DNA of 541 bases from a phage. Position 1 is the stretch's first letter. Every line of letters starts with the position of its first letter. Below, one piece after another: positions 1 through 541 of this stretch. The position numbers and the translations under genes were made by a program. Location of the stretch: sequence record EF517042.1. One strand, given 5' to 3'. Below the pieces are notes generated by a model. It did not search any database. It was not told the DNA's origin and saw only the letters and a program-made list of their open reading frames with translations.

Positions 1-292
1 TACTGTGGAGGCACGACGAGGTGAGATGGCTGTAGGCTCTCACGCTAAGGATTACAACCACAACTCTATCGGCGTCTGCCTTGTTGGTGGTATCGACGAT
101 AAAGGTAAGTTCGACGCTAACTTTACGCCAGTCCAAATGCAATCCCTTCGCTCACTGCTTGTCACACTGCTGGCTAAGTACGAAGGCGCTGTGCTTCGCG
201 CCCATCATGAGGTGGCGCCGAAGGCTTGCCCTTCGTTCGACCTTAAGCGTTGGTGGGAGAAGAACGAACTGGTCACTTCTGACCGTGGATGA
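1..292 (+). CDS. 3.5: T7-type lysozyme / N-acetylmuramoyl-L-alanine amidase (also the T7 RNA polymerase inhibitor), 5'-partial; C-terminal ~96 residues, stop TGA at 290-292
   Basis: Frame 2 is open from the window edge (codon 2-4 ACT = Thr precedes the ORF-track GTG at 5-7) to TGA 290-292. The translation TVEARRGEMAVGSHAKDYNHNSIGVCLVGGIDDKGKFDANFTPVQMQSLRSLLVTLLAKYEGAVLRAHHEVAPKACPSFDLKRWWEKNELVTSDRG matches, near-identically, the C-terminal part of phage T7 lysozyme as I recall it, which ends ...KRWWEKNELVTSDRG. Conserved zinc-ligand and catalytic positions are present: His codon 203-205, Lys 221-223, Cys 227-229. The true start lies upstream of the window; the GTG at 5 is a track artefact. 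Confidence 0.93.
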   Translation, partial: TVEARRGEMAVGSHAKDYNHNSIGVCLVGGIDDKGKFDANFTPVQMQSLRSLLVTLLAKYEGAVLRAHHEVAPKACPSFDLKRWWEKNELVTSDRG

Positions 293-293
293 T

Positions 294-316
294 TAATTGA
301 ACTCACTAAAGGGAGA
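294..316 (+). promoter_or_regulatory. T7 RNA polymerase promoter, class II, phi3.8-type; predicted transcription start at G311
   Basis: TAATTGAACTCACTAAAGGGAGA at 294-316 aligns with the 23-bp T7 consensus TAATACGACTCACTATAGGGAGA (-17 to +6) with 4 mismatches (-13, -12, -11, -2). The core CTCACTA and the GGGAGA initiation region are intact. Its position, one base after the lysozyme stop and 45 nt before the next ATG, matches the T7 gene 3.5 / phi3.8 / gene 3.8 arrangement. Confidence 0.88.
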
Positions 317-343
317 CCACAGCGATTTCCCTTTGTTCGCATT

Positions 344-349
344 GGAGGT
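344..349 (+). promoter_or_regulatory. Shine-Dalgarno ribosome-binding site for the downstream HNH endonuclease gene
   Basis: GGAGGT at 344-349, followed by a 6-nt A/T-rich spacer (CAAATA, 350-355) and ATG at 356-358. Confidence 0.75.
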
Positions 350-355
350 CAAATA

Positions 356-541
356 ATGCGCAAGTCTTATAAACAATTCTATAAGGCTCCGAGGAGGCAT
401 ATCCAAGTGTGGGAGGCAGCCAATGGGCCTATACCAAAAGGTTATTATATAGACCACATTGACGGCAATTCACTCAACGACGCCTTAGACAATCTCCGTC
501 TGACTTTCCCAAAAGAAAACTCATGGAACATGAAGACTCCA
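356..541 (+). CDS. 3.8: HNH-family endonuclease (T7 gene 3.8-like), 3'-partial; first 62 codons, continues beyond the window
   Basis: ATG at 356 with an upstream GGAGGT; the frame is open through 541 with no stop. The translation is MRKSYKQFYKAPRRHIQVWEAANGPIPKGYYIDHIDGNSLNDALDNLRLTFPKENSWNMKTP. It carries the HNH signature HIQVWEAANGPIPKGYYIDHIDGN...N, with the conserved His at codon 455-457 in DHIDGN and the conserved Asn at 491-493 in DNLRL. Position directly after lysozyme and its promoter matches T7 gene 3.8. It is not in the supplied ORF track only because it lacks an in-window stop. Confidence 0.88.
   Translation, partial: MRKSYKQFYKAPRRHIQVWEAANGPIPKGYYIDHIDGNSLNDALDNLRLTFPKENSWNMKTP

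Follow-up and report, generated by a model that had tools for sequence, protein, structure and literature searches.

A stretch of 541 nucleotides (EF517042.1, hereafter the window) ends inside an open frame that starts at ATG 356–358 and is missing from the program-made list of open reading frames (ORFs), which raises the questions of whether this frame is a gene, what kind of protein it encodes, and what keeps it in the genome. An earlier note, made from the letters of the window, had read the frame as an HNH endonuclease gene cut by the edge. The frame is indeed stop-free to base 541 and comprises 62 codons, MRKSYKQFYKAPRRHIQVWEAANGPIPKGYYIDHIDGNSLNDALDNLRLTFPKENSWNMKTP. Its omission is an edge artefact, as the note had supposed, because ORFs extending past the end of the source sequence are left out of the list. 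We find that positions 356–541 are, very probably, the 5' half of gene 3.8 of phage T7, encoding an HNN-AP2 endonuclease. The earlier HNH call is correct and the finding is an ordinary one, the gene being already catalogued: T7 sequence records have included gene 3.8 since the early 1980s, and the gene is routinely deleted or used for insertions. What is gained is mainly bookkeeping, in that the gap in the ORF list is accounted for and the protein is assigned to the cysteine-free HNN-AP2 class. A real question, though not a new one, is whether the gene 3.8 protein (gp3.8) cuts DNA and homes, or persists by a form of DNA binding that blunts GAPS4-like defenses.

Identity and layout of the window

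The window aligns with T7 (V01146 / NC_001604, 10870–11410) over its full length and free of gaps, with 98.3% identity and nine point differences. In T7, the region is annotated with gene 3.5, the phi3.8 start at 11180, gene 3.8 at 11225–11590, and then the gene 4A primase/helicase. The order in the T7 RefSeq record thus agrees with the location between the gene 3.5 lysozyme and the gene 4A primase/helicase that had been given for the frame earlier, and the product of gene 3.8 is named there as "HNH endonuclease". The upstream context of gene 3.8 contained in the window consists of the gene 3.5 amidase and phi3.8, and the window stops at base 541 (Table 1). Its gene 3.5 part is recognized by Pfam Amidase_2 (E=4.2e-8) and by the amidase family PHROG 822 (E=4.9e-41). 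The T7 gene 3.5 lysozyme doubles as an inhibitor of T7 RNA polymerase.

Table 1. Features of the window and the positions at which it departs from T7
Feature	Position	Strand	Remarks
Gene 3.5, 3' two-thirds	2..292	+	Codons 56-151 and stop 290-292; T7 lysozyme / N-acetylmuramoyl-L-alanine amidase
Gene 3.5 changes	G14C, A21G, G51A, C132T	+	G60R, D62G, G72D, A99V
Gene 3.5 stop change	A291G (codon 290-292)	+	TAA -> TGA
Promoter phi3.8 (T7 RNA polymerase, class II), -17 to +6	294..316	+	TAATTGAACTCACTAAAGGGAGA, same bases as T7
Leader hairpin	307..335	+	311-331 in phi3.8-initiated RNA; 307-335 in read-through RNA
Leader change	G325A	+	Hairpin pair C317-G325
Shine-Dalgarno GGAGG of gene 3.8	344..348	+	Kept in T7
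Gene 3.8, codons 1-62 of 121, cut at window edge	356..541	+	59/62 identical to T7 gp3.8
HNH_3 nuclease core, residues 14-58	395..529	+	Pfam match, homolog alignment, I-HmuI alignment, and model
gp3.8 missense trio: C470T (P39S), G503A (A50T), C506T (L51F)	470..506	+	Comparison with T7

The signals for expression of gene 3.8 are those of T7. The start codon lies exactly 45 nt past the phi3.8 start (T7 11180, corresponding to G311 of the window) and is separated by a 7-nt spacer from a canonical ribosome-binding site (RBS), GGAGG; both the distance and the RBS had been recognized in the earlier reading. Between G311 and the ATG, the 45-nt leader holds a 5' hairpin in addition to the GGAGG. The RNase III site R3.8 is placed shortly after the phi3.8 start (PMC6938266), in the region of the leader hairpin, and we infer that this hairpin is R3.8 itself. 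A search of Rfam (E<=1) found no RNA families in the window. Two minus-strand ORFs (293–457 and 445–531) were dismissed, as they overlap a gene of known function and the T7 annotation of the region is all on the plus strand, and minus-strand matches resembling a sigma-70 promoter and a terminator were rejected because they occur at chance frequency.

The 62 encoded residues are identical to those of T7 gp3.8 at 59 positions. With 121 residues (NP_041974.1), the T7 protein also has the length of about 120 residues that had been predicted for the complete product.

A cysteine-free HNH_3 core

Pfam HNH_3 (PF13392) matches residues 14–55 of the window fragment with 54 bits (E=1.3e-14; gathering score 24.8), spanning profile positions 3–44 of 46, and PHROG 4578, "HNH endonuclease", aligns residues 1–62 with positions 1–62 of 130 (E=1e-30). 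The HNH nuclease motif that had been picked out by eye is thereby confirmed. The core residues are all intact in the window, namely H15, W19, D33-H34 (452–457), N46 (491–493), N55 (518–520), and N58 (527–529). The second conserved Asn had been expected in the downstream sequence, but N55 already lies within the window.

Homologs were collected with full-length T7 gp3.8 as the query, which returned 28 proteins, 26 of which were aligned together with the window fragment; the 62-residue fragment as the query returned only four partial proteins. Across the 26 homologs and the window fragment, H15, D33, H34, N46, L49, and N58 are invariant, and W19, G24, P27, L47, R48, A50, and N55 are kept in at least 90%. 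Comparison of T7 gp3.8 alone with the sequences in the PDB gave chance matches only (a designed kelch-like repeat protein and Fab heavy chains), whereas a profile made from the family alignment matched the homing endonuclease I-HmuI (1U3E) with E=8.9e-9. I-HmuI is thus out of reach for a single-sequence search, and a family profile is required. Counted along the printed alignment, D33, H34, N46, and N55 of gp3.8 align with D74, H75, N87, and N96 of I-HmuI. In the I-HmuI structure, the metal is reportedly held by D74 and N96, with H75 serving as the general base. By this alignment, gp3.8 has a ββα-metal nuclease core of the I-HmuI type, with D33/H34 as the counterparts of the general base and one metal ligand, N46 as that of the structural Asn, and N55 as that of the second metal ligand; the whole of this core is encoded by the 62 codons. 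The predicted fold, taken from a 99%-identical full-length relative rather than from the window variant, is a ββα arrangement with strands at 31–34 and 47–50 and a helix at 52–57 (pLDDT >90).

Neither T7 gp3.8 nor the window fragment has any cysteine, and the core of the family has no conserved cysteine. Membership of the classical zinc-finger HNH group (CX2C...CX2C, McrA/colicin-type, Pfam HNH) was therefore rejected, the Cys dyads being absent. Phage endonucleases of the "HNN" type without CX2C dyads have been described (PMC2248197). The earlier note had treated a lack of zinc-binding Cys pairs downstream as grounds for giving up the HNH assignment. This test is invalid: gp3.8 belongs to the I-HmuI / HNH_3 ("HNN") branch, where the CX2C dyads are lacking and a zinc-Cys criterion does not apply, and since T7 gp3.8 is naturally free of cysteine, the test would wrongly discard a correct call. 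gp3.8 is properly compared with I-HmuI and with the HNN-AP2 genes of phages, not with the zinc-finger HNH enzymes.

The C-terminal AP2 half

The remainder of the protein lies beyond the window edge. In the 99%-identical full-length relative, residues ~66–118 form a DNA-binding domain of the AP2 fold. The homology with AP2 is seen both in profile–profile comparison and in the fold. Pfam AP2 (PF00847) gave no match at E<=1 with T7 gp3.8 alone, but matched 10 of 27 gp3.8 homologs (best 2.3e-10); the AP2 domain of gp3.8 has diverged below the Pfam threshold. The AP2 half and the Cys-free HNH_3 core together place the protein in the "HNN-AP2" free-standing class, and gp3.8 is accordingly described here as a minimal, two-module, Cys-free HNN-AP2 free-standing endonuclease whose nuclease function is predicted.

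Nine differences from T7

The three missense changes in gp3.8, which the earlier note had missed, belong to a set of nine differences that leave the identity of gene 3.8 unchanged, but whose pattern is unusual. Eight of the nine are transitions, and the seven that alter codons of gene 3.5 or gene 3.8 are all nonsynonymous, with no synonymous change among them. Over the same bases, YpP-Y differs from T7 by 3 nonsynonymous and 18 synonymous changes (Fisher p=1e-4 against the window), and 04922B by 8 and 23, respectively (Fisher p=5e-4 against the window). For random single-base changes in the two frames, 67–80% are expected to be nonsynonymous, and the chance of seven out of seven is then roughly 0.06–0.2 (67–80% to the seventh power), so that the 7:0 pattern fits mutation that has not been filtered by selection.

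The changed bases are also private to the window: none of the nine is shared with YpP-Y or 04922B, and none of the six in the part matched by C5 is shared with that phage. At the four missense sites of gene 3.5, the T7 bases are kept by C5, YpP-Y, and 04922B, and the lysozyme stop is TAA in T7 and in all three relatives. Neither of two exact strings, one over position 470 and the other over 503 and 506, occurs in IMG/VR, JGI metagenomes, or GTDB genomes. As for gp3.8, P39S, A50T, and L51F spare the catalytic residues. Residue 50 is Ala in all 26 homologs and Thr in the window, while the aligned residue of I-HmuI is Val. Ser39 and Phe51 occur in none of the homologs, and these two columns are variable. 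In the leader, G325A (+15 from the phi3.8 start) disrupts the C317–G325 pair and halves the stability of the hairpin, with a fold energy of −6.7 kcal/mol in the window vs −13.4 kcal/mol (z −4.5) in T7; G325 is retained in the natural relatives.

Viewed together, the nine differences look like unselected mutation rather than natural divergence, and we take the window to be a T7 derivative. The copy in the window is probably a damaged or artificial variant, arising from a mutagenized laboratory lineage, from sequencing or assembly error, or from deliberate alteration, and its gp3.8 may be partly inactive. The 7:0 ratio, where natural relatives give 3:18 and 8:23, points in this direction, as do the eight transitions among the nine changes, the private bases with their tested strings (covering three of the nine) absent from three collections, the substitution at an invariant Ala, and the halved stability of the leader hairpin, which is conserved. 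On the other hand, the sample of differences is small, there are no frameshift or nonsense changes, the lysozyme stop is exchanged for another stop, and HNH_3 still scores 54 bits, compared to 56 for T7. Furthermore, the mutagenized T7 sequences AY264774 and AY264776 from the Bull laboratory are farther from the window than the wild type is, so the window does not derive from those lines. A damaged copy concerns the variant alone and is compatible with its identity as T7 gene 3.8. It is very unlikely that the nine changes are instead adaptive, reflecting an unsampled T7 lineage in which positive selection acts on lysozyme and gp3.8, for example through a host defense that gp3.8 counters.

Distribution and dispensability of gene 3.8

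Gene 3.8 is present in T7, Yersinia phage YpP-Y, and Escherichia phage 04922B and absent from Escherichia phage C5, with sharp boundaries. Phage C5 follows T7 colinearly up to about window base 344, which takes in the end of the lysozyme gene, the promoter, and the leader; the whole of gene 3.8 is then missing, and the match resumes near codon 8 of gene 4A, the RBS region and 4A N-terminus of C5 being different. Several other relatives, among them the Salmonella phages C2 and 3A_8767 as well as CICC 80001 and PHB20, also match only bases 1–344 of the window. Homologs with 73–81% identity precede the primase gene in Yersinia phage fPS-9 and lie no more than ~300 nt from the lysozyme gene in Klebsiella phage SH-Kp 152234. 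Weaker relatives (30–49%) are scattered elsewhere in unrelated phages, and many of them are annotated as homing endonucleases. Among the Citrobacter phages, SH5 has a gp3.8 homolog, whereas the near-identical SH4 and Dev2 do not (PMC4925675).

The gene is non-essential and serves as an insertion site (PMC6042481, PMC3737178), and a reduced T7 chassis carries a seamless deletion of it (PMC12153263). Deposited mutant T7 clones carry a deletion that begins at window base 385 and stops just short of the gene 4A RBS. In MZ375250 (clone T7_90S), the annotated primase/helicase begins at the ATG of gene 3.8, 16 codons before the usual 4A start, so that the primase/helicase would be extended in frame at its N-terminus. 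The main text of PMC9825161, checked as a possible source of the MZ3752xx deletion clones, names neither the accessions nor gene 3.8.

At its 3' end (T7 11519–11590), gene 3.8 holds the RBS and the first ~8 codons of gene 4A, while gene 4A of C5 has another RBS region and another N-terminus, as read from the aligned DNA. Since the start of gene 4A differs in C5, the inserted gene 3.8 seems to be the source of a new start for the essential primase/helicase. Upstream, window bases 190–344 (the last ~90 bases of the lysozyme gene, the promoter, and the leader) are nearly identical whether or not a phage carries gene 3.8, unlike the gene 4A start, which is strongly diverged in C5. This near-identity could reflect constraint on the promoter or a co-conversion tract.

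Possible functions of gp3.8

Dispensability combined with patchy presence in a single slot, here the interval from the phi3.8 leader to the gene 4A start in otherwise colinear T7-like phages, is characteristic of homing endonuclease genes, and gene 3.8 has two of the features by which such genes are recognized: a nuclease joined to a DNA-binding module and a sporadic presence at a fixed site. Considering these along with the promoter, leader, RBS, and intact catalytic residues, we infer that gp3.8 acts, on balance, as a free-standing homing endonuclease, a reading drawn from sequence comparison. The AP2 module would recognize a particular site near the lysozyme/primase junction of relatives that lack gene 3.8, the HNH module would nick or cut the 3.8-less genome at this site during co-infection, and recombinational repair off the genome carrying gene 3.8 would then copy the gene in. 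A literature search found no published nuclease assay, target site, or mobility data for gp3.8.

It is conceivable, if rather unlikely, that gene 3.8 is instead kept chiefly for an anti-defense DNA-binding protein, whose AP2 module, together with a perhaps idle HNH fold, would bind or mask DNA breaks or ends such that break-sensing systems like GAPS4 fire late, with the nuclease and homing functions being vestigial. GAPS4 is a DNA-break-sensing defense system, and a 2025 preprint reports that gp3.8 attenuates it without nuclease activity (10.1101/2025.09.07.674715). In that work, plasmid-expressed T7_3.8 H34A strongly cut the protection by GAPS4 against lambda, T7 without genes 2.8, 3.8, and 7.7 gave smaller plaques, and the triple-deletion phage lost to the wild type only when GAPS4 was active; the authors propose that DNA breaks are masked by binding of the protein to DNA (10.1101/2025.09.07.674715). 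That the dead H34A protein still blunts GAPS4 suggests a benefit of DNA binding to the phage, and the AP2 DNA-binding fold is itself well supported. However, the results come from a preprint and were obtained by over-expression and with a triple deletion rather than with gene 3.8 alone. In addition, 26 homologs with identities as low as 29% all keep D33, H34, N46, and N58, and nearly all keep N55, which argues that the nuclease activity is under selection, and presence or absence at one slot is the pattern expected from a mobile gene. Homing and anti-defense are mutually compatible roles. The view expressed in the earlier note that the role of the gene is poorly defined has become partly outdated, as its non-essentiality is documented and the preprint deals with GAPS4.

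Terminase-associated HNH proteins are small and phage-encoded, which gp3.8, with its 121 residues, is as well. It is nevertheless highly improbable that gp3.8 is a packaging-associated HNH protein like gp74 of HK97, assisting terminase on concatemers. Gene 3.8 is part of the class II DNA-metabolism block, where its neighbors are the amidase and the primase/helicase and not the terminase or portal genes, and it is dispensable; together, its position and dispensability exclude a terminase-helper role. The combination of HNH_3 with an AP2 domain also differs from the Cys-containing HNH type. Finally, that the open frame at 356 is a chance ORF and no gene at all, as its absence from a mechanical ORF list might suggest, is ruled out by profile matches with E=1e-14 to 1e-30, an annotated T7 orthologue, and a promoter and RBS of its own.

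Relation to known systems

The closest known system is T7 gp3.8 itself, which has the same locus, promoter, RBS, start codon, and motif residues as the gene in the window. It differs from the window copy by P39S, A50T, and L51F and by the leader change G325A, and its 59 C-terminal residues lie outside the window. I-HmuI (PDB 1U3E), from Bacillus phage SPO1, shares the HNH_3-type core without zinc-binding Cys. However, I-HmuI is an intron-encoded protein of 174 residues with a helix-turn-helix as its C-terminal DNA-binding module, whereas gp3.8 is free-standing and has an AP2 domain, and nicking has been demonstrated for I-HmuI, while the nuclease activity of gp3.8 is predicted.

The AP2 half of gp3.8, outside the window, is 9–15% identical to plant and apicomplexan AP2/ERF domains (AtERF1 2GCC, TEM1 7ET4, WRI1 7WQ5), but unlike gp3.8, the AP2/ERF proteins are transcription factors without a nuclease. 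Free-standing HNN-AP2 endonucleases are known from the Xanthomonas phages Xp10, OP1, and Xop411, where the genes are scattered and variably present (PMC2248197). The phage HNN-AP2 endonucleases and gp3.8 have the same two-module plan, with the boxes HxxxW, P, DH, NLR, and EN in common, and gp3.8 differs from its AP2-positive homologs in lacking their N-terminal extension of 40–60 residues.
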